A DNA stretch of 24,648 bases from a virus (IMGVR_UViG_2684622670_000019:1-24648), one strand, 5' to 3'; positions 1,088 to 11,174 are shown, numbered from the stretch's first letter. Translations and numbers: made by a program. The notes: generated by a model not told the origin, from the letters alone.

Positions 1088-1450
1088 ATGTTAAAGCTAT
1101 TTGCAAAGTACACCTCGATTGGTGTGCTAAACACACTTATACACTGGGTGGTTTTTGGTGTTTGTATCTATGCAGCGCATACAAATCAGGCTCTGGCAAA
1201 CTTCGCAGGTTTCGTTGTGGCAGTGAGCTTTAGCTTCTTCGCGAATGCAAAATTCACATTCAAAGCATCGGCTACAACGATGCGCTACATGTTATACGTC
1301 ACGTTCATGGGAGCGCTTAGCGCTGCTGTTGGATGGGCTGCTGATAGATGCGCACTTCCCCCAATCATTACTCTTATTACCTCCTCCGCCATCAGCCTGG
1401 TGTGCGGTTTCGTCTATTCAAGGTTAATTGTCTTTAGGGGTGCGAAATGA
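1088..1450 (+). CDS. gtrA: GtrA, bactoprenol-linked glucose translocase (flippase), O-antigen conversion
   Basis: 120-aa small multi-TM protein ([24 protein letters not shown]...) matching GtrA of Shigella/Salmonella serotype-converting phages from memory; first gene of a three-gene operon with ATGA overlap to gtrB. Confidence 0.85.
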
Positions 1451-2370
1451 AGATATCTCTTGTAGTTCCTGTCTTCAATGAAGAAGAGGCGATACCAATT
1501 TTTTATAAAACGGTACGTGAATTCGAAGAGTTGAAGCCATATGAAGTAGAAATTGTTTTTATAAATGATGGTAGCAAAGACGCTACTGAGTCAATTATTA
1601 ATGCTCTGGCTGTTTCAGATCCTCTAGTTATTCCTTTGTCATTTACTCGCAACTTTGGTAAAGAACCAGCATTGTTTGCAGGGTTAGACCATGCTACTGG
1701 AGATGCCGTGATTCCAATTGATGTTGACCTGCAAGACCCGATTGAGGTTATTCCTCATCTTATTGAAAACTGGCAGGCTGGCGCCGATATGGTGCTGGCA
1801 AAGCGTTCAGACCGCTCTACAGATGGGCGTCTGAAGCGCAAGACAGCAGAGTGGTTTTATAAGCTTCACAATAAGATCAGCAATCCGAAGCTCGAGGAAA
1901 ATGTTGGCGATTTCCGGCTGATGTCCCGCGATGTAGTGGATAATATTAAGCTTATGCCAGAACGCAATCTTTTCATGAAAGGCATTCTTAGTTGGGTTGG
2001 TGGGTCTACAGATGTAGTTGAGTATGTCCGTGCTGAGCGGATAGCCGGCAGCACGAAATTCAATGGGTGGAAATTATGGAACCTCGCACTTGAAGGTATA
2101 ACAAGTTTCTCCACTTTCCCTCTGCGTATGTGGACTTATATTGGGCTATTCGTAGCTGGAATGGCTCTTTTATATGGCACATGGATGATTATCGACACCT
2201 TGGTGTTTGGAAATCCGGTTCGCGGTTACCCATCACTTATGGTGTCCATTCTCTTCTTAGGCGGAATTCAGCTTATAGGAATTGGCGTACTTGGTGAATA
2301 TATAGGAAGAATTTACATAGAGTGCAAAGCTAGACCTAGATTTATTATCAAGAGAATGAAAAATGAATAA
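1447..2370 (+). CDS. gtrB: GtrB, bactoprenol glucosyltransferase (GT2 family)
   Basis: 307 aa; N-terminal GT2 signature ([10 protein letters not shown]...INDGSKD...IDVDLQDP) and C-terminal TM helices; translationally coupled to gtrA and gtrC. Confidence 0.88.
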
Positions 2371-3793
2371 AACAATCAAAATCAACTTCTACATACTATT
2401 TATTATTTTGTTTTTTATTATAACATGTAATATTTACTACTATGATGATGTATTTAGATCGTATTGGGGATATTATGGTTGGTCTGAAGATGGAAGGCCT
2501 TTTGCAGATTTATTCTATAAATTATTTATTTTCTTTAGATCTGAAAGCATACCAGATATTTACCCGCTACCACTAATTTTAACGTCTGTGCTTCTTGTTA
2601 TATCACTAACAAATGCATTGCAAAATATACTATCAAAAGATGGGGTTATAGTTAATATAACTTTTGCAATATTTATGCTTAACCCTTTTCTTTTGTCTAA
2701 TATGCTATTTAGATATGATGGTGCATTTATGATTTTATCTATTGCACTTTCGGCTATTCCGTTCATTTTTACAAAAAGTAGAACATTCGCCATATCATCA
2801 CTACTGTGCCTAACAATATCGCTTGGATTGTATCAAGCCTCAATAAATGTGTACATTGGGCTTGCATCAGTAGTGGTTGCAATGGAAGCATTGAAAGGGG
2901 AAAAGTTTACATCAATAGCCAGCAGAGTGCTATTATCTGTTACATGCGTAGTCTCTTCATATGTTATATACTCAAAATTAATACTTGAATCATTATCTTT
3001 AAATAATAACTTCTCGAAATATGCTCAAATAGTTGAATTAAATAAAGGAGGAGTCATCAATGTTTATGAGAATATAATTAACGCAGTTAAAAAAATTGAT
3101 GTTGCTCTTCATAGTGGTATTGGAACACCTCTTTATATATTTTTATCAATAATAGCCATATCATCTGTGTGTGTTGCCATTAAACGAAAACAATTTCAGT
3201 TACTATTTTTTATTGCTATATCTATTTTGGGTTGTTTCTTTTCTTCTTTTGGTGTGTCTGTCTTTGGGAAATCGCCAGTATTTGTGTCAAGGATATTTAT
3301 CGGATTTGGTGTTTTTATAATGGCAGTTCCTTTGATTGGCTCAGCACTTCTTAATTGGAAACTTAATTACTTACTATCATTATTCATTGCAATTCCTATG
3401 CTGTCCATCTTTTTTGCCACCATTAATGCCTCAAGAGAGGAATTTAAATTCCAAAACAATTTATCACTTCAAATGATTAATGATATTAATCATAGCAAAG
3501 CTAAATATCTCGACTTTGTTGTTATTGATGGCTATGCGAAGAACTCTTCTGTTGCAAGCATAAATAAGAAAATATTTCCCGTAATATCTGATATATTGCC
3601 TCCTGTCTTTACAAATAGATATGATGGTGGGGTTTTCACATTGATGAGAAATGGACTAAAAGATGTTGTTAGTGCTGAGTCATCAGCTGCAGACAACGCG
3701 GTATCAATATCAGATGATGGAAATCTAATTTCTGACAATAATATATATAGCATTCATGCGACCAAAGATATTATTGTAATAAAATTAAAATAA
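2363..3793 (+). CDS. gtrC: GtrC-type serotype-specific O-antigen glucosyltransferase (polytopic membrane protein)
   Basis: 476 aa, many TM segments, extremely AT-rich; third position of the gtr operon, overlapping the gtrB stop by 8 nt. Family members are highly divergent, so the call is by position and topology. Confidence 0.7.
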
Positions 3794-3857: not shown

Positions 3858-5921
3858 CTAAGAAAAAATCCAATTACCATACATTCCAGTTATTTCACTA
3901 TACATGCCTTCTTTATTTTTTAATTTAATCCAAGCGCCGAATTCAGTGGTGGCTACTTGCGTTACTTCTGAAGAGTTACTTACAAACCTTATATTTGCTA
4001 CACCTATTGCTCTACTTGGTGATGAGATTGTCATAGCTCTTATTATTTTTAACTCTCTGAAATCACCAGTGCTACTTGCGATTATATCAATATCATTAGT
4101 GCTATGGTTAAATATAATGGTGTTATTTAACAGCTTTGTATTTTGAAAAGATGTTATTGTGGCAATCCCTCCAATAAATCCTCTTATCTGGGCCGGGCCA
4201 GTATCTCCACTATCATAGGCTAATGATGTGGTTATATTATCTTCCTCCTTTCCTATATGTATATCAATAAAGTACTCTTTTAAACTAATACCAGCCAAAA
4301 CTAAAAATGTTGATATAGTCGATGTACATTTTTTAATAACCAGATTCTTAAAATTTCGAGATAACCCGATGCTTATTGGATCAATAGTTCTAGGTAATAA
4401 TCTGATTATTTTATCCCCACCTGCTATAGTAGTTTCATCAACAATTTCACCTATTTCCACAAAAAGGCGGTCATCCCCCAGCATTTCAAAAACACAAAAG
4501 TCTAAAGGAGACGTCTTAAATACCACTCTATCAATTAAGATTTTCCCTATACCATTTCCCATAACTCTAGTAGCTGTCACCCCTCTGTTAGTCACATTCG
4601 TTAGTGTTGTATTCCCCGAGATGATTACATCAGCTACAAGACTGTCAGGGAAAATATTAAGTTCCACACCAGTATACGCACCATTGATGTATGGGTTTGA
4701 GATTTCACAATTAATCAACCGAGGGACAGTGTGTCCAGGCACACTTTCGTCTGCCTCTGGTTCAATATCTATGCCAGATTTCGGCATAGCACCTGTAACA
4801 CCTCCGTAGTCACCAATATTATAAATCTCAGGATTAACTATTATTATATTTTCACCTGACGTTAGGCTTATACCGTTACGCCTGCATTGTTTGACGATCG
4901 GTTTTTCTATATAGATATTTTCTGGAACCGTGCCATCGGTAGTCCCCCACTTCATGCCTATATATATTCCGTCGCCAAACATGTTGGTATACAGTCCACC
5001 AATAATACGAATGTTAGAGGATTGAAGTATTGTAAGCCCCCATCCATGTTCTCCTTCGGATGTGTTTGTTAACCGATCACCTTCCAGTACAGGATTATAA
5101 ATATTTACATTTTTAACACCGTTTGCTATGTAAATGATATGGCTTTGTGGCCTGTTTTGATTTGCTAGTTTTAATGCCCCATCCTTCTCAAATCTTATAG
5201 TGCTATTATCTACGCATCTTAACACAGATTTAAAAGCATCATTTCCAGGGGAAAAAGGGTCTTCATTCACAGCCATCAAGCCTTCAAATGATTTATCTAT
5301 AATGAATTCTGCACCAATAGATGCTGCGGATTCATACGCTTTTTGTAGTGTTTGTGCGTCATTGCAAAAATCAGAAGCATAAATAGAGTTGGTTTTCTTT
5401 AATTCAAATATCCTACCATTTCTGCTCCTGATAATTAATATTCCATCTGGGGTGAGCGTGGGGGTGGATGATTCATAAACATATCGACCATGAATCATTA
5501 CATGATTAAATATATCTGGGACATCCTCTTGCTCTATATTAATAGCAACATATATAAGTTTATTACTTAACTCCCCCCTTAACTGATCAGGATCATACTT
5601 CAGCACATTAGGAAAATAGAACTGCTGCGCACCATACGCATCATATACAGCCATAGAATGGCCTTGCACAGTTACGAATTTAGCAATCTGTCCGTTATAT
5701 ACCGGATATCCAGCAGCGTTAATGATTATTGGTTGCGAAACAGGAACGTGAGAACCGTCTTCATTCTCCACATAAACCTGAATCTGGTTTTCAGGATTTA
5801 CTGGATCAGTGTCAATTTTACCGATATAAATTTTGCCATTGGCAACCGCTTTAAAAGAACGCGCCATAGTGAATAGTTGCGAAGGCATACTCACTACAAC
5901 ATTGGCTGTAATATCTGTCAT
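3858..5921 (-). CDS. Tailspike protein: P22-type N-terminal head-binding domain fused to a beta-helix receptor-binding (depolymerase) domain
   Basis: 687 aa; N-terminal ~110 aa ([11 protein letters not shown]...[32 protein letters not shown]...VLKYDPDQ) closely matches the P22/Sf6/HK620 tailspike head-binding domain from memory; the remainder is a repetitive beta-helix-like sequence. SD GGAG upstream of ATG 5921. Confidence 0.85.
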
Positions 5922-6053
5922 TTAATTTGCTCCAGATACAATGAATCGCCGCAGCGTAGCTACGGTTGGCGTTTGTTACATACCGAAACGGTACGATTGT
6001 TGATTTGTACAGTAGGTTTTACGATGCCATTCCACCCATTTGGTGAGGCATTG

Positions 6054-6311
6054 ATGATGTACAGCAAATACGATGAGGCGCAGTTCCACTTGAGGCTTAC
6101 GCACGAGTTGCACGCTAAGATTAAGCAGCGTGCAAAAATGAATAACAGGTCTATCAATTCCGAAATTGTGGCTACGATGGAAGAATCTCTCTCCAAACCA
6201 TCACCTGTAAGCGGGTATCGTGATGAAGAAGAGAGACTGGCCTCATTAATCTCGGAACGAGTAAAAGAAGTTGCGGCTGAAATTCTAAGGAAAGAAAAAA
6301 CCCGCGATTAA
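6054..6311 (+). CDS. Mnt-like ribbon-helix-helix repressor
   Basis: 85 aa from ATG 6054 (MMYSKYDEAQFHLRLTHELHAKIKQRAKMNNRSINSEIVATMEESLSKPSPVSGYRDEEERLA...) aligns with P22 Mnt (..FNFRMPMEVREKLKFRAEANGRSMNSELLQIVQDALSKPSPVTGYRNDAERLA..). The longer ORF-track start at 5877 is rejected. Confidence 0.75.
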   Translation: MMYSKYDEAQFHLRLTHELHAKIKQRAKMNNRSINSEIVATMEESLSKPSPVSGYRDEEERLASLISERVKEVAAEILRKEKTRD

Positions 6312-6326
6312 GCGGGTTTAGTTTTC
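6295..6326. terminator. Bidirectional intrinsic terminator between convergent mnt-like and KilAC antirepressor genes
   Basis: 7-bp stem aacccgc (6299-6305) / gcgggtt (6312-6318), flanked by AAAAAA (6295-6300) and TAGTTTT (6320-6325). Confidence 0.5.
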
Positions 6327-6337
6327 ATTATAAAATG

Positions 6338-7063
6338 TTACGCCACATTTGAGCCATGTAGCAGGTGTTGTAGTGCTTTAACGCCTTCAGAATTGTAGCG
6401 GAACGCCTCTACCTGTTTGCTGGAATGCGCCGATTTATCCAGGAAGAACTTCCCGTACTGCTCAGTTTTGAGGTTGTTTGCGTTAGCAATGCGACCAATC
6501 TTGTTGGCCGTTACTCCAAGCTGCTCTGCAACCTCCCCTGCTGAGTAGTAATGCTCTTCTATTGCCGGAAGAGGTATTGCATTAAAACCAACAAGCGGGT
6601 TGATTATACTTGCTGCCGCTGTCTGCTTTGCCTCCGGCGCAAGATTTGGCATCAGATCGAACAGATTGGTAACAGCTTCAACCGTCATTTTCAGTGTTCG
6701 CGCTTGACGATACTCAATAAGTCCACTCGCTGATTTACCGCTTTTAATGTGTGCTTCCTGCATACTTTCAAGTTTGTCTACAAGTGTTCGGCGAACTGCT
6801 TTAGATTCGCGAGCAGCAACACGAAGCGCCTGCTTGATAGTCATGGAGATAACATCAATGTCAGCCCCGTTTTTCCGACCTACACTTTTTGTGTAGGTCT
6901 CGCCCTCCAATTCATCCTCAATTTTCTCGATGAATTTGTTGTTACGTACTGATGGCTCTCCACATAACTTGCGAGCTTCATTAACCATCATCAGAAGGCT
7001 TTGGCTGTCAATGGTTTTATCCGTGACAACGGATCCGATGTTTGCTACATTCTTCAAAGTCAT
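6338..7063 (-). CDS. Antirepressor-like protein with C-terminal KilAC/ANT-type domain
   Basis: 242 aa from ATG 7063 with SD AAGGA 7 nt upstream; C-terminal region (YSAGEVAEQLGVTANKIGRIANANNL...) resembles the phage antirepressor KilAC domain; sits in the ant position of a P22 immI-like operon. Confidence 0.6.
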   Translation of the reverse strand: MTLKNVANIGSVVTDKTIDSQSLLMMVNEARKLCGEPSVRNNKFIEKIEDELEGETYTKSVGRKNGADIDVISMTIKQALRVAARESKAVRRTLVDKLESMQEAHIKSGKSASGLIEYRQARTLKMTVEAVTNLFDLMPNLAPEAKQTAAASIINPLVGFNAIPLPAIEEHYYSAGEVAEQLGVTANKIGRIANANNLKTEQYGKFFLDKSAHSSKQVEAFRYNSEGVKALQHLLHGSNVA

Positions 7064-7100
7064 TAGGCATTCCTTATGTGGTAGTAAGGGTGTGACATAG

Positions 7101-7132
7101 GCCGCCAGCAGCACACTGGCGGTTTTCTTTTT
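7101..7132 (+). terminator. Intrinsic terminator in antisense orientation between the two antirepressor genes
   Basis: Stem ccgccag (7102-7108) / ctggcgg (7116-7122), 7-nt loop, then TTTTCTTTTT (7123-7132) on the plus strand although both flanking genes are on the minus strand. Confidence 0.55.
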
Positions 7133-7151
7133 GCGCCGTCCGGCGCACCAA

Positions 7152-7778
7152 TCAATGAATCCATTCCTCGCCGCGCAGTTTTGTCAGCATTGGCTGAGCG
7201 TTCTTTACGACAAAATTGTTGGTATCAAGATTCTTCATTTCACGAAGAAGTGATTTCTTGGTTTCTTCTGACATATAGCGAGTCTCATATGCAATATCGT
7301 AAATTCTTCCTGAAAGCTCAGAACCAATTTGCTTCATTCCTGGGTAGATGTGTTTGCACATTTGTTGACTCTTCTCCATCCACAATTGTAAGTAGCAGAG
7401 ATTAACCAGTTCTTCGTCAGTAAACTGTTTTGCAATCGGTGAGCATTCTGCCTGCCGATCCAAAATATCCAGCACCCAGCGGCGGAACTCTTTTGCTACA
7501 GGAGTGCGAGCAAACATCGCGATTAGGTGGGCACCGCGTAGTGAGAAAACTCGCACTTTTTTGCGATAATTTCCTGAGGTACTCACTTCGAGTACCTGAG
7601 TCATTCCGGCGCTAAACTCATCGCCATACTTGTTATAAATCATTGTTACTGCACGACTATTTGCGTATTTAAGTGCAGATGCAATATTAGATGATGTAAA
7701 CCAAACACCATGCATATCACGGGTGGGCACCAACTCAACTCCGTGGAAGTTGTAATCTGATTTTGCTACAATATTCAT
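7152..7778 (-). CDS. Antirepressor-like protein with N-terminal Bro-N/AntA-type domain
   Basis: About 208 aa from ATG 7778 with SD AAGGAA upstream; N-terminal half (NFHGVELVPTRDMHGVWFTSSNIASALKY...LIAMFARTPVAKEFRRWVLDIL) fits the Bro-N/AntA fold pattern; immediately downstream of the Arc-like gene. The TTG start at 7883 from the ORF track is rejected. Confidence 0.6.
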   Translation of the reverse strand: MNIVAKSDYNFHGVELVPTRDMHGVWFTSSNIASALKYANSRAVTMIYNKYGDEFSAGMTQVLEVSTSGNYRKKVRVFSLRGAHLIAMFARTPVAKEFRRWVLDILDRQAECSPIAKQFTDEELVNLCYLQLWMEKSQQMCKHIYPGMKQIGSELSGRIYDIAYETRYMSEETKKSLLREMKNLDTNNFVVKNAQPMLTKLRGEEWIH

Positions 7779-7851
7779 GTTAGTTTCCTTGCATACGGTT
7801 ACTGACATAGAGGCCCGGTTTGTGTTCGCGCACTGCCGGGCTTCGCTATTT

Positions 7852-8025
7852 TTATTGGATGACAACATCGCCCTTTGCCTCAAGTTTCATCAATAACTCC
7901 ATTCGATAAGCTATCTCTGCCTGAATTGACCTATGGCATCTTTTTGCTGATTCGCGGATATGTGAATCAACCTTTTCTGTAAAACGAACCTGACGCGGCT
8001 TGATGGAAGATATCTTTTCAGTCAT
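7852..8025 (-). CDS. Arc-like ribbon-helix-helix repressor (57 aa, below the ORF-track cutoff)
   Basis: MTEKISSIKPRQVRFTEKVDSHIRESAKRCHRSIQAEIAYRMELLMKLEAKGDVVIQ aligns with P22 Arc (PQFNLRWPREVLDLVRKVAEENGRSVNSEIYQRVMESFKKEGRIGA); SD AGGAG 7 nt upstream of ATG 8025; first gene of the minus-strand operon. Confidence 0.7.
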   Translation of the reverse strand: MTEKISSIKPRQVRFTEKVDSHIRESAKRCHRSIQAEIAYRMELLMKLEAKGDVVIQ

Positions 8026-8074
8026 TATGCACTCCTGTTTTTGAAAAACTCATAATCTCACTTTTTGTAGTTTG

Positions 8075-8103
8075 ATTATTCACTCACACTCAGTATGAGT
8101 CAA
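8075..8103 (-). promoter_or_regulatory. Sigma70-type promoter for the arc-ant operon (Pant analogue) with embedded candidate operator
   Basis: On the minus strand TTGACT (8103-8098), 17-nt spacer, AATAAT (8080-8075); the spacer contains the inverted repeat ACTCA-gta-TGAGT (8088-8100) and a further ACTCA copy at 8082-8086. Confidence 0.5.
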
Positions 8104-8124
8104 TGAATTTTTTATGGTGAACTA

Positions 8125-8766
8125 ATGAATTTTGACGATCAATTCCCATCAAGAGTATCTCTGGCAAGACAGTCCAGGGGTATGACGCAGGCGCAGTTGT
8201 CAAAATTAGCTGGTGTTGTTCAACGTCAAATAGCTGCATACGAGGGTGGTGAGGCTAAACCACGGCTTCGTGTATTGCAGGCATTAGCCAACGCATTAGG
8301 TACTACGGCTGAGTGGTTAGCTCTGGGTGAAGGTCAGGGTCCGGGAACAAAAAACGTCATGCCTGACGTTCTGGTAAAGCAAATACCAATCCTCAAACTA
8401 GATGAAGTTATGCATTACCTAAACACAGGTGAACATTCATCGTCTAGATTTCATCCGGCAATATACAATGTTGGTGACTCTGCATTTGCATTGACTATTG
8501 AAGGTGAAGCTATGACTACAAGTTCAGGCATTAGCTTTCCCAGAGGATCAGTTGTCACGTTCAGCCCTCTAGTAAAAGCTAAAAGCAAAGATTATGTAAT
8601 AGCATCATTGGATAAAGAGCAAATATTGAGCTTCAAACAGGTTTACATTGGTGAAATAGAGACAAACCTAGTATCCCTAAACCCAATGTATCCTAATATT
8701 CTTGTTAGAAATGAAGATGTTAGTATTTTGGCAACCGCAGTTTACCTTGAAATCCCGTTGCTTTGA
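8125..8766 (+). CDS. Lambda-CI-fold repressor (N-terminal XRE HTH, C-terminal S24 LexA-like domain) with catalytic Ser replaced by Ala; predicted non-cleavable
   Basis: 213 aa; HTH (MTQAQLSKLAGVVQRQIAAYEGGEAKP); C-terminal domain aligns with the lambda CI C-terminal domain (VGDSAFALTIEGEAM versus ASDSAFWLEVEGNSM; SFKQV versus TFKKL; LNPMYP versus LNPQYP). Divergent from the arc-like operon, in the P22 mnt position. Confidence 0.75.
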   Translation: MNFDDQFPSRVSLARQSRGMTQAQLSKLAGVVQRQIAAYEGGEAKPRLRVLQALANALGTTAEWLALGEGQGPGTKNVMPDVLVKQIPILKLDEVMHYLNTGEHSSSRFHPAIYNVGDSAFALTIEGEAMTTSSGISFPRGSVVTFSPLVKAKSKDYVIASLDKEQILSFKQVYIGEIETNLVSLNPMYPNILVRNEDVSILATAVYLEIPLL

Positions 8767-8826
8767 TATCCTTTAGGAAGCGACACATTATCATCTGGTA
8801 TCCTGCTCAAAACTAAGGAGGTTGGT

Positions 8827-9054
8827 GTGAAGCGATGGTTCCTCATAATTACTGTTTTCGCGATCATTTACACTATTTTCCCTGCATTAAAAGCACCAAT
8901 GCAAATAATTTCACTAGCAATAATTGCGATTGGTGCTTTCATTGCAGTAGCCGTACTTGTGTTTAAGGTTTTAAAGTTTTTAGTTTGGCTATCAAAAGAT
9001 GATGGATGCAAAGTTCATCAAGAAAAAGAAGGCAAAATAACCAAAGTTGACTAA
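8827..9054 (+). CDS. Small two-TM membrane protein; candidate superinfection-exclusion or abortive-infection effector
   Basis: 75 aa; strong SD TAAGGAGG 5 nt upstream of GTG 8827; two hydrophobic helices (FLIITVFAIIYTIF, IISLAIIAIGAFIAVAVLVF) and a charged C-terminus; AT-rich; directly downstream of and co-oriented with the CI-like repressor; no recognisable homologue. Confidence 0.55.
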   Translation: MKRWFLIITVFAIIYTIFPALKAPMQIISLAIIAIGAFIAVAVLVFKVLKFLVWLSKDDGCKVHQEKEGKITKVD

Positions 9055-11174
9055 CTGTCACTAGCGAGCCATGTAATAATCCCCGTGCGGGCAATGGTTT
9101 TTGCTTCATCTGTTGATAAGGTTTTCTCCCATCTCTTAAATGCCCCAGATTGCATCAGTTTCCTTTCTATTACGCGTCTCACTTCTGCTCTGTCTACTGG
9201 TGCGTTTTGCAGGCGAAATAGCATTGATTTAAACTCAGGAGAAGACAGTAGAGCATCAGCAGCCTTTATCCTGCTTGTTTTCCCTGACATCAATGCGGAC
9301 GTTATCACCCCTGTTGCACCTACACCAGGAAGACCAGATAAGCTTGTAATACCTTCCGCCGCAGCAGCTTTTGAGGCTATTCCATAAATTTTTGCGAGAC
9401 TACCCTTTTCTTTCAGAAAGTTATTAACTTGCTGATCCACAAGGCTACTAGCATACTGCTTACCAGTATTGAGTCTATTCATAGACTTAGCTGCTTGATA
9501 AATCGTATCAAGGCGCTTTGATGCATCTGTGCCAATAGCATCACGGAGAGCCTTCATATTGGCCCCATTGCGTGACATTCCGTTATACCATTTTACAAAT
9601 CCATCAACTCCTAATTGCTGGCCAGGTGATTTGGCATAGCTGGTAAATGCTTTATTCATTGAGGTGAGCGCAACTTCCTGCCGCATATCCTTTGGAATTG
9701 ACTTCATTAATTGCCTAAAGTCACCACCGTTTCCTTTTGCCATATTAACAACAGCACTTTCAACTTTTGGAATTGCTGATTGCTGAAGTTTTCTACCCAA
9801 GACGGTTACAGCATCATCTTCAATGGATTTTCGTTTTTTTACCAACTCCTTACCAAGCGTCCATAACTCCCCTGCGCCATATTTTTCTGCGACAGCCTGT
9901 TGGTCATCTGTTATAGCTGCATATAACTTTTTAAGAACACCTGTTTCTTCATCCTTGAATGGACCAGAGCCTTTGCCAATAGCTTGCCCCACCTGCTTTC
10001 TAGCGAGATCTAAACGCCCATACGTTGGCAAGGTGTTTGGATCAAGTCGGTTCAATGTCCGCTTCATTATTGGAGATAATTCATCAATTCCACCTATGTC
10101 ATCAGCAAAATCCTCTAAAAAATTCAATGTATTAGTTGCCTCAATACGGTCTCTTACTGGAACCTTTTCGGCAATTTTGTTGTAGATGTTATCTGACTGA
10201 TTTTGTAATGATGAAATGGTTTTATCAAAATTATCTGCAAGCCTGTCAGAAACCAGTTGCTTATCAAGGCTTCCCCCAAATGAAGTTATCATTTCATCAG
10301 CTTTTCTTCCTAATTCAGTAATAAAACGCTTATGCGCCTCACTAATCTCTGTTCCAGGGAGACTTGCCACTGCATTATCAAGAGCCCTGACAGCGGGATT
10401 ATTAGAGATCATGCCTGGAGTGGCATAATTTTCCAGTTCTAGCTCACGAATAGCATTTATCGCGTTAAAATCAGGATTAACTTCATCGGCGAAATCTTGA
10501 ATAGCTCGTTGCCCGCCGATAAATTTATTGTCCATTGCGCCAGCAGCTTTCTTTAACGTTGCTTTAGATGATTTACTACCCATCCCTACGGATGAGCGAT
10601 AAATATCTCCGGCACTATTTTTAATTTTTCCTGCAATCTTCCCAAGCGCTGGGCCAACAATCTCTGCTACAGGGCCAGCCACAGCGCCAATAGCAGCGCC
10701 GGAAGCAACATCGCTATTTGTTCCATTGGCTACAATAGCCCCTTCTCCAGCACCAAGCCCTGCGGCGGCAGCCAGCCTTGCCGCCCCTTTCGGAACCTGA
10801 GAAATAATCCCACCACCACTAACAAATGGTGCTGCTTGTCCAACGAACTCACCAACATCTTGTGCGGTTGATGGTTTTGCCGCTAACTTCTGCTGTAGAG
10901 ACTGAATTGCGGCTTGCTCTTCTGGTGTCATATCCTGAAACAGGCCAACACCTTTACCAACATCCATCAATCCACTGAGAACGCCATACATAAAACGGTC
11001 GAAACCGTTGGCTTTATTAACAACATTTTCCTGTCTGGAATTTTCCTCTGGTGAAACCAAAGGTGATTGCTGCTGTTCTGGTTGGGCATCAAGCACAAAA
11101 CCATCAGGAAGCTGTGAGTTATCAGGCTGATTATCGAGAACAAAGCCTTCGGGTAAACCTACATCGGTTGCCAT
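9051..11174 (-). CDS. Ejection (E) protein, P22 gp16-like
   Basis: 707 aa, Gly/Ala-rich; last gene of the gp7-gp20-gp16 ejection-protein block by conserved P22-like gene order. Confidence 0.7.

Follow-up and report, generated by a model that had tools for sequence, protein, structure and literature searches.

A probable P22-type secondary immunity region, built of interchangeable modules, between gene 16 and the tailspike gene of a Lederbergvirus prophage

What kind of regulatory system lies at positions 6054-9054 of IMGVR_UViG_2684622670_000019:1-24648, a stretch of viral DNA of 24,648 nucleotides (nt; hereafter the window)? The original prediction, made from the sequence alone, described a rearranged immI-like island between an ejection-protein gene and the tailspike gene, with a mix of repressor folds and a split antirepressor, and considered it the most likely place in the window for an uncharacterised immunity or exclusion system. 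Our analysis indicates that the locus is probably a P22-type secondary immunity region (immI, or 'ant moron') built of interchangeable modules, which retains the P22 order and the antisense RNA sar and carries a CI-like repressor in the place of Mnt.

Layout of the locus and its sar homologue

The window covers the late half of an E. coli prophage of P22-like (Lederbergvirus) type, and its late genes are on the minus strand. The locus is flanked by the tailspike gene (3858-5921, Pfam Head_binding E 1.9e-67) and by an open reading frame (ORF) of 707 amino acids (aa) in the gene 16 position (9051-11174), past which the P22 injectosome gene (Inj_translocase) was found. Its placement between gene 16 and the tailspike gene is backed by synteny with P22, JEP4 and E212. 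These flank profiles and the synteny with P22 bear out the proposal of an immI-type regulatory island at this site, and the six ORFs predicted for it are all present, with the coordinates, order and strands expected (Table 1).

The locus shares with P22 immI its location, the gene order, overlapping divergent promoters, sar (in sequence, position and fold) and the sieA leader. As in P22, Ant has a C-terminal domain of the P22AR type, a homologue of Mnt (45% identical) is present, and the ant operon opens with a small gene, here one that probably encodes a ribbon-helix-helix (RHH) protein. It differs from P22 immI in that a CI-like protein with helix-turn-helix (HTH) and S24 domains stands for Mnt, the protein in the Arc slot lacks BLAST-level similarity to Arc, Bro-N takes the place of P22_AR_N, a further gene (ORF2) comes after ant, the homologue of Mnt is placed at the tailspike end and has another palindrome, and an unrelated 75-aa protein fills the sieA slot. 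The gene content is therefore unlike that of P22 immI, as had been proposed, through the CI-like protein in place of Mnt, the addition of ORF2 and the 75-aa ORF in place of sieA. The term 'rearranged', however, does not describe it well, since the P22 order of sieA slot, maintenance repressor, divergent promoters, arc slot, sar and ant is retained and it is the modules that have been replaced. The 'three repressor folds' likewise reduce to two, as Arc and Mnt are both RHH proteins.

To the features of the original prediction we add a sar homologue, recognised by aligning and folding the sequence directly against that of P22. Between the 57-aa gene and ant, the window aligns with sar and the arc-ant junction of P22, and the stop codon of the 57-aa gene adjoins the sar terminator exactly as the P22 arc stop codon does. 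The extended -10 promoter, TGCTACAAT, sits inside the first ant codons, and the predicted RNA covers the ant Shine-Dalgarno (SD) sequence. When folded, this RNA adopts the two-hairpin structure of P22 sar (-33.2 kcal/mol, z -4.5, vs -29.5, z -5.3, for P22). Across nine cassettes, 97.5% of the cells of the terminator hairpin were paired, with compensatory changes at 7 of 14 pairs; the observed score was reached by none of 500 shuffles, and slid controls paired at 38-49%. About one fifth of the paired cells were G-U, which are A-C mismatches on the opposite strand, and the hairpin structure is therefore selected on the sar strand. The promoter motif TGnTAnAnT was found in all nine cassettes, whichever N-terminal domain their Ant carries. 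Searches of the whole window against Rfam gave no match at the gathering threshold; SymR, seen over the sar position at E <= 10, scored 24.9 bits against a gathering score of 61 and was rejected as chance level. Judged by alignment and fold, the sar of the window is homologous to P22 sar.

The regulatory part of the locus proved to be portable. The CI-like gene, the 57-aa RHH gene and an antirepressor gene occurred with the same geometry in all seven contexts examined, which included two lambda-like tail operons, one HK97-like tail region, an int-adjacent site in Salmonella and another tailspike-adjacent site. When the window was compared with an SBF22-type prophage, homology ran over 5800-6323 and 6338-7858, broke off, and resumed over 8796-9300. 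The intervening segment 7859-8795 (57-aa gene, control region and CI-like gene) stands for an Arc-family gene and a divergent 106-aa Mnt-type gene in SBF22, and despite this swapped regulatory pair the Ant, sar and ORF2 cargo is 91% identical between the two. The Arc/Mnt-type version is also present in the siphovirus SPN3UB, within the tail gene cluster and with a 76%-identical Ant. The SBF22-type and SPN3UB cassettes thus resemble that of the window in Ant (76-91% identical), sar and geometry, and in SBF22 in ORF2 too, but have a true Arc-family protein paired with a Mnt-type protein of 106-108 aa and another control region (palindrome TTGGTTCTAGAACCAA). Exchange of the immI regulatory pair as one block (RHH/RHH for HTH-S24/RHH) can leave sar and cargo in place. 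In three metagenome or Logan contigs (L006, L013 and L014) the cassette lies inside siphovirus tail-gene clusters, for example between tape-measure and minor-tail genes; the 'ant moron' cassette is therefore not confined to P22-like phages, and it moves among the late operons of unrelated virion types.

Close relatives of the whole region are on record. It is 97.6% identical to the viable, isolated phage JEP4 (MT740315), whose genes are labelled repressor C2, hypothetical, Rha, KilA, hypothetical and mnt. Its identity to E. coli NZ_OZ040950 is 99.1%, and at least 80% of its length is present in 25 of 5426 complete E. coli genomes, among them that of E. coli HS, in which it carries an insertion of IS3 (IS, insertion sequence). 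Villafane et al. (2008) named the inter-16/9 region the 'ant moron', drew the HS-1 type of the E. coli HS prophage in their figure 3, stated that HS-1 is apparently without arc, so that its control of ant must differ from that of P22, and described the P22 version as the sole ant moron studied (PMC2629481). HS-1 and JEP4 show the same arrangement as the window at 97.6-97.9% nucleotide identity, minus the 75-aa ORF, and differ from it by one extra small ORF in JEP4 and by the IS3 insertion in HS. HS-1 was said to be arc-less in 2008, whereas the present analysis points to a probable RHH gene in the Arc position and identifies a homologue of sar. It would thus correct the view of HS-1-type morons as arc-less, and it further notes the loss of the catalytic site described below. 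The arrangement itself was thus already public, in JEP4, about 25 E. coli genomes and HS, although a functional description was not found.

Table 1. Features of the locus, in window coordinates (a dot marks features without a strand)
Feature	Position	Strand	Basis or remark
Palindrome TACCGAAACGGTA, candidate operator of the Mnt-like protein	5981-5993	.	73 nt upstream of the mnt-like ATG
Mnt homologue, 85 aa, RHH and C-terminal coiled-coil region	6054-6311	+	Pfam Arc E 3.2e-15
Bidirectional terminator-like hairpin, between the convergent mnt-like gene and ORF2	6298-6319	.	both strands in terminator scan
ORF2, 241 aa, Rha/KilAC-like, second cargo gene of the ant operon	6338-7063	-	phrog_1726 anti-repressor E 2e-100
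Ant, 208 aa	7152-7778	-	Pfam Bro-N E 4.7e-10 and P22_AR_C E 5.8e-14
sar homologue: extended -10 promoter TGCTACAAT and predicted RNA of ~75 nt	7764-7772 (promoter), ~7779-7855 (RNA)	+	covers ant SD; P22 sar alignment
Arc-position protein, 57 aa, probable RHH; gene first in the ant operon	7852-8025	-	Pfam ParD_like E 8e-4, Arc E 0.011 (weak)
Divergent control region, 99 bp	8026-8124	.	candidate promoters and operators
Leader site, candidate operator	8044-8066	.	
Candidate P(CI-like): -35 TTGATT, 16-nt spacer, -10 TATGAG	8072-8077 (-35), 8094-8099 (-10)	+	overlaps Pant-like back-to-back
Pant-like promoter: -35 TTGACT, 17-nt spacer, -10 AATAAT	8103-8098 (-35), 8080-8075 (-10)	-	scan score 10/12
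Palindrome ACTCAGTATGAGT, candidate operator	8088-8100	.	exact sequence unique in window
CI-like repressor, 213 aa, 434/lambda-type HTH	8125-8766	+	Pfam HTH_3 E 9e-13, Peptidase_S24 E 1.3e-12
Promoter-like site TTGATA-17-CATTAT (8763-8791) and sieA-type leader, SD TAAGGAGGT, GTG start	8763-8829	+	promoter scan
75-aa ORF, two predicted transmembrane helices, sieA slot	8827-9054	+	phrog_7294 full length, E 3e-49

The CI-like repressor and the divergent control region

Self-cleavage of S24 proteins proceeds by an established Ser-Lys mechanism. In the HMMER alignment of the CI-like protein with lambda CI, the general base is kept (Lys171 on Lys192) and the nucleophile Ser149 of lambda CI (EGNSM) is replaced by Ala129 (EGEAM). 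The same GEAM, with Ala, is present in the CI-like proteins of JEP4 and NZ_OZ040950. The aligned cleavage site is Val-Met, not Ala-Gly, in a linker alignment of low confidence, and most relatives are also without an obvious Ala-Gly. The protein therefore resembles lambda CI and LexA in its HTH and S24 architecture and in the retained Lys, its best solved-structure match being the lambda CI C-terminal domain (E 1e-7), but differs from these repressors in the Ala that stands for the nucleophile, in the missing Ala-Gly and in not being the primary immunity repressor. JEP4 carries its own immC genes c2, cro and c1 besides the CI-like gene, which is therefore that of a second repressor. Because the nucleophile Ser is changed to Ala and the Ala-Gly site is absent, the window allele is most likely not cleavable through RecA, and its C-terminal domain probably serves dimerisation alone.

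These residues bear directly on the possibility that the locus is an SOS-coupled antirepressor switch, in which the CI-like protein would act as a phage analogue of LexA and its inactivation by activated RecA after DNA damage would release Ant and lead to induction. Host LexA plays such a role for the antirepressors of Gifsy, 186 (Tum) and SPC32H. The full S24 domain with its Lys would suit a switch of this kind, and the Ser (GDSM or GNSM) is kept in relatives of 42-49% identity and in the close relative P0003 (81%). The nucleophile is nevertheless Ala in the window, JEP4 and NZ_OZ040950, the aligned cleavage site of the window protein is the Val-Met noted above, an obvious Ala-Gly is missing from most relatives too, and in lambda CI the S149A change abolishes cleavage, so that we regard SOS coupling of this locus as very unlikely.

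Ordered by identity to the window protein, the homologues carry Ala at 92%, Ser at 81% (P0003), Ala at 76% and 71%, and Ser at 42-49%. Codon 129 (window 8509-8511) is accordingly a Ser/Ala polymorphism inside a closely related clade, a pattern that, as aligned, would imply repeated loss or reversion. A bolder reading, which we consider unlikely, is that the CI-like repressor exists in two natural states, the Ser alleles (P0003 and the relatives of 42-49%) being cleavable through RecA and the Ala alleles blind to SOS, and that the cassette is a mobile 'second switch' in which one codon toggles the link of secondary immunity to DNA damage. If so, the Ser alleles would make antirepressor release SOS-dependent, and with it prophage induction or the cross-induction of neighbouring prophages.

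The recognition helix of the HTH domain, VVQRQIAAYE, is near-invariant among the CI-like homologues. Several of these (in L006, L010 and other cassettes) were lengthened by about 12 aa ('MSQ..F.NGE.M') by gene callers, and the window carries a stop codon in the frame of that extension (8094-8124). The apparent conservation of the extension peptide is really conservation of promoter and operator DNA (ATGAGTCAA...). Since the extension is conserved as DNA and its frame is stopped in the window, ATG 8125 is the true start of the CI-like gene.

As can be seen in Table 1, the 99-bp control region holds two divergent promoter candidates, which overlap fully back-to-back like the annotated Pant and Pmnt of P22. 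The AAAAACTCATA and ATGAGTCAA motifs, the -35 and -10 elements and the ACTCAT/ATGAGT sequences are conserved among cassettes in which the identity of the CI-like proteins is only 44-81%. The control region contains ACTCA four times, vs 0.17 expected, which is the maximum for any 99-bp stretch of the window.

The ant operon and the proposed circuit

The 57-aa protein encoded by the first gene of the ant operon matched phrog_10182 (E 2e-37), and its gene was found in all seven cassettes. Alignment of its family with Arc/Mnt by hhalign gave E 1.8e-4 and a probability of 48%, with the strand-helix-helix elements and the RS(I/V)xxEI motif aligned. The second gene encodes Ant, whose C-terminal domain is 29% identical to residues 206-274 of P22 Ant (BLASTP E 2e-9) and whose N-terminal domain is Bro-N, not P22_AR_N. 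The protein as a whole is 76% identical to SPN3UB Ant. Its start codon, ATG at 7778, is preceded by the SD sequence AAGGA and aligns with the P22 ant start.

ORF2, which follows ant, had been taken as one part of a split antirepressor. Ant is however a complete two-domain protein, and ORF2 belongs to an independent family of at least 1940 full-length homologues that follows different Ant types elsewhere: ORF2 homologues stand behind Ant in L012 (84% identical, after an Ant of the P22_AR_N type), in SBF22 (86%) and in L014 (42%). The gene has its own upstream SD (AAGGA), and there is no minus-strand terminator between ant and ORF2. Because of its large family, its association with different Ant types and the lack of a terminator after ant, ORF2 is, as read from this arrangement, an independent second cargo gene co-transcribed with ant. 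The likeness of ORF2 to KilAC proteins is at fold level. PHROG assigns the protein to an anti-repressor family, and an AF2 model of moderate confidence (predicted local distance difference test, pLDDT, 71; predicted template modelling score, pTM, 0.35) resembled BFVD proteins named antirepressor, KilAC, KilA and Rha in Foldseek, with E down to 1.7e-8. No Pfam family was matched at E <= 0.1, including ANT/KilAC (PF03374), and no NCBIfam family. Foldseek against the PDB returned nothing at E <= 0.001, its best match being a MerR-like winged HTH (RacA) to the C-terminal part only.

Two further details of the operon were noted. A plus-strand terminator-like hairpin lies between ant and ORF2 (7099-7125; CCGCCAG...CTGGCGG, then TTTTCTTTTT); it would stop transcription antisense to ant, and a stretch of about 33 nt of it is conserved at 97% in cassette L010 from Salmonella, which is divergent elsewhere. 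JEP4 and SBF22-type prophages have an extra 222-nt ORF for a hypothetical protein between ORF2 and the mnt terminator (L001 4418-4639; L003 2927-3148), which is absent at the 6323/6338 junction of the window and in NZ_OZ040950.

In the circuit that we infer, with its assignment of repressors to promoters, its targets for Ant and ORF2 and any exclusion activity, the CI-like protein would be made in the lysogen from the promoter that overlaps Pant-like and would hold Pant-like off, which is the job of Mnt in P22. As it would not self-cleave on RecA activation, it would be an SOS-blind maintenance repressor. When phage DNA enters a cell without the CI-like repressor, Pant-like would fire and express, in this order, the 57-aa RHH protein, Ant (Bro-N and P22AR_C) and ORF2. 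The RHH protein, as the analogue of Arc, would later shut Pant-like, and Ant, possibly together with ORF2, would bind and inactivate immC-type primary repressors, either those of lambdoid prophages already in the cell or the phage's own. Read-through of the late operon must cross the locus to reach the tailspike gene, and sar would pair with the ant ribosome-binding site and so curb translation of Ant from such transcripts. The 75-aa membrane protein would be made from the sieA slot in the lysogen as a candidate exclusion factor. The Mnt-like protein would form a separate unit, which probably binds its own upstream palindrome and autoregulates, and may modulate transcription into the tailspike gene. 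The model is compact and testable, with one promoter region, two repressors and one small RNA. Antirepressor modules of this kind set when prophages wake and whether one prophage induces another; the practical stakes are modest, as this would be a variation on a well-understood circuit in an arrangement already present in sequenced phages.

Several observations weigh against this circuit. The P(CI-like) promoter is weak compared with the consensus and was not returned by the promoter scan. Footprinting over six cassettes assigned no operator to the CI-like protein as opposed to the RHH protein. The half-sites of the 13-bp palindrome lie closer together than is usual for an HTH dimer, and the palindrome is absent from cassettes L010 and L012. 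The assignment of the 57-aa protein to the RHH class comes from sub-threshold profile matches, with Pfam Arc under its cut-off, and the ORF2 model reaches moderate confidence only. The immC region, with the presumed target of Ant, lies outside the window. The literature searched, whose coverage was incomplete and which leaves absence unproven, contained no functional study of the cassette. IS3-family and IS100/IS21-family insertions break the region in E. coli HS (NC_009800) and MS15236 (NZ_CP082094), and the region is therefore dispensable for prophage carriage.

These interruptions also bear on whether the locus might be a decaying, non-functional moron, that is, leftovers of recombination without a current role. 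The region is highly mosaic and variable among relatives, the catalytic Ser is gone, and rapid flux of the region with degraded ant genes in some phages has been described (Villafane et al. 2008, PMC2629481). All six ORFs are however intact, and the region is 95-99% conserved over about 25 genomes and a plaque-forming phage. The sar hairpin is kept up by compensatory changes, distant cassettes retain the promoter and operator motifs, and the ORF2 family has the many full-length members counted above. Decay is accordingly a highly improbable account of the locus, and it is, like the SOS-coupled switch and the defence island considered below, less supported than the immI-type circuit.

The sieA slot, the tailspike-proximal Mnt unit and neighbouring genes

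The 34-nt stretch of leader and start codon at 8796-8829 is 97% identical to the 5' leader of P22 sieA, although the 75-aa protein has no BLASTP match to P22 SieA. Because the sieA leader, the TAAGGAGGT SD and the GTG start are common to both, the 75-aa ORF is an alternative cargo of the sieA slot. Phages E212 and EC.P3 and SBF22-type prophages have this ORF as well, adjoining the gene-16-position ORF; the versions in JEP4 and NZ_OZ040950, whose homology to the window stops at 8832, do not. We consider the 75-aa membrane protein of the sieA slot a candidate exclusion factor.

This ORF, with its sieA leader and strong SD, is what could make the locus, or part of it, an anti-phage exclusion or defence island that mainly shields the lysogen from other phages; the CI-like repressor expressed in the lysogen would in addition give immI-type immunity against phages with the same Pant operators. 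Yet a search of PADLOC-DB v2 returned no defence system, only generic HTH matches for the CI-like protein and nothing significant for the other ORFs. The 75-aa protein is unlike SieA and missing from the otherwise identical JEP4 and NZ_OZ040950 regions, and the other five genes are all of regulator or antirepressor types. A main role in defence is therefore improbable to us. Of the uncharacterised immunity or exclusion system proposed for the locus, the first word stands, as no functional study was found, whereas no known defence family was matched and the 75-aa ORF is the sole candidate for exclusion.

A 29-nt imperfect inverted repeat (8882-8947; 79% complementary, 8-nt loop) falls within the 75-aa ORF and, on the late strand, comes immediately after the gene-16-position ORF. 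It could be an RNA structure of the late transcript, or a mere effect of repetitive hydrophobic coding.

At the other end of the locus, the Mnt-like gene is convergent with the ant operon, as predicted, and not divergent from Pant as in P22. It is 45% identical to P22 Mnt over 73 aa (full length), including the linker SKPSPV(T/S)GYR, and 88 phage records hold Mnt-annotated homologues. Far from being an 'extra' gene of the cassette, it is the widespread Mnt unit next to the tailspike gene, which occurs by itself in phages L and Sf101: in Sf101 nothing but this Mnt gene separates gene 16 from the tailspike gene, and phage L has mnt and orf62. The Mnt-only morons of L/ST64T and Sf101 share with the window a Mnt gene divergent from the tailspike gene, a palindrome placed like Omnt and, behind mnt, a bidirectional terminator, which in phage L is annotated at the equivalent place. 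They have no ant cassette, whereas in the window the CI-like/Ant cassette lies between the Mnt unit and the gene-16-position ORF.

The palindrome upstream of the Mnt-like gene stands at nearly the distance from the ATG of P22 Omnt (-74), and the Omnt-like palindrome of phage L is at -80. Its TACC-N5-GGTA arms are kept in JEP4, SBF22, VSe13 and Sf101, and the exact TACCGAAACGGTA is unique in the window. On this evidence the Mnt-like protein may well bind TACCGAAACGGTA. The region between the mnt-like and tailspike genes is near-invariant in the window, JEP4, SBF22 and VSe13, and no minus-strand promoter into the tailspike gene was found in this interval at the scan threshold. An action of the Mnt-like protein on the ant promoter was considered and rejected, as the Mnt unit is found together with two ant control regions that are unrelated to each other, and elsewhere on its own. 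In phage L, mnt has been suggested to have another function or to be a remnant (PMC8022706), and Villafane et al. (2008) raised a possible effect of Mnt on read-through into the tailspike gene (PMC2629481).

The tailspike gene (3858-5921) has only the head-binding N-terminus and the upstream 'boundary' sequence in common with those of P22, JEP4 and CUS-3, from which its receptor-binding part differs. To the left of it lie O-antigen modification genes, gtrA, gtrB and a gtrII-type gene. This gtrA/gtrB/GtrII serotype-conversion operon (1088-3793) has a guanine-plus-cytosine content of 30-38%, vs about 50% in the head genes.

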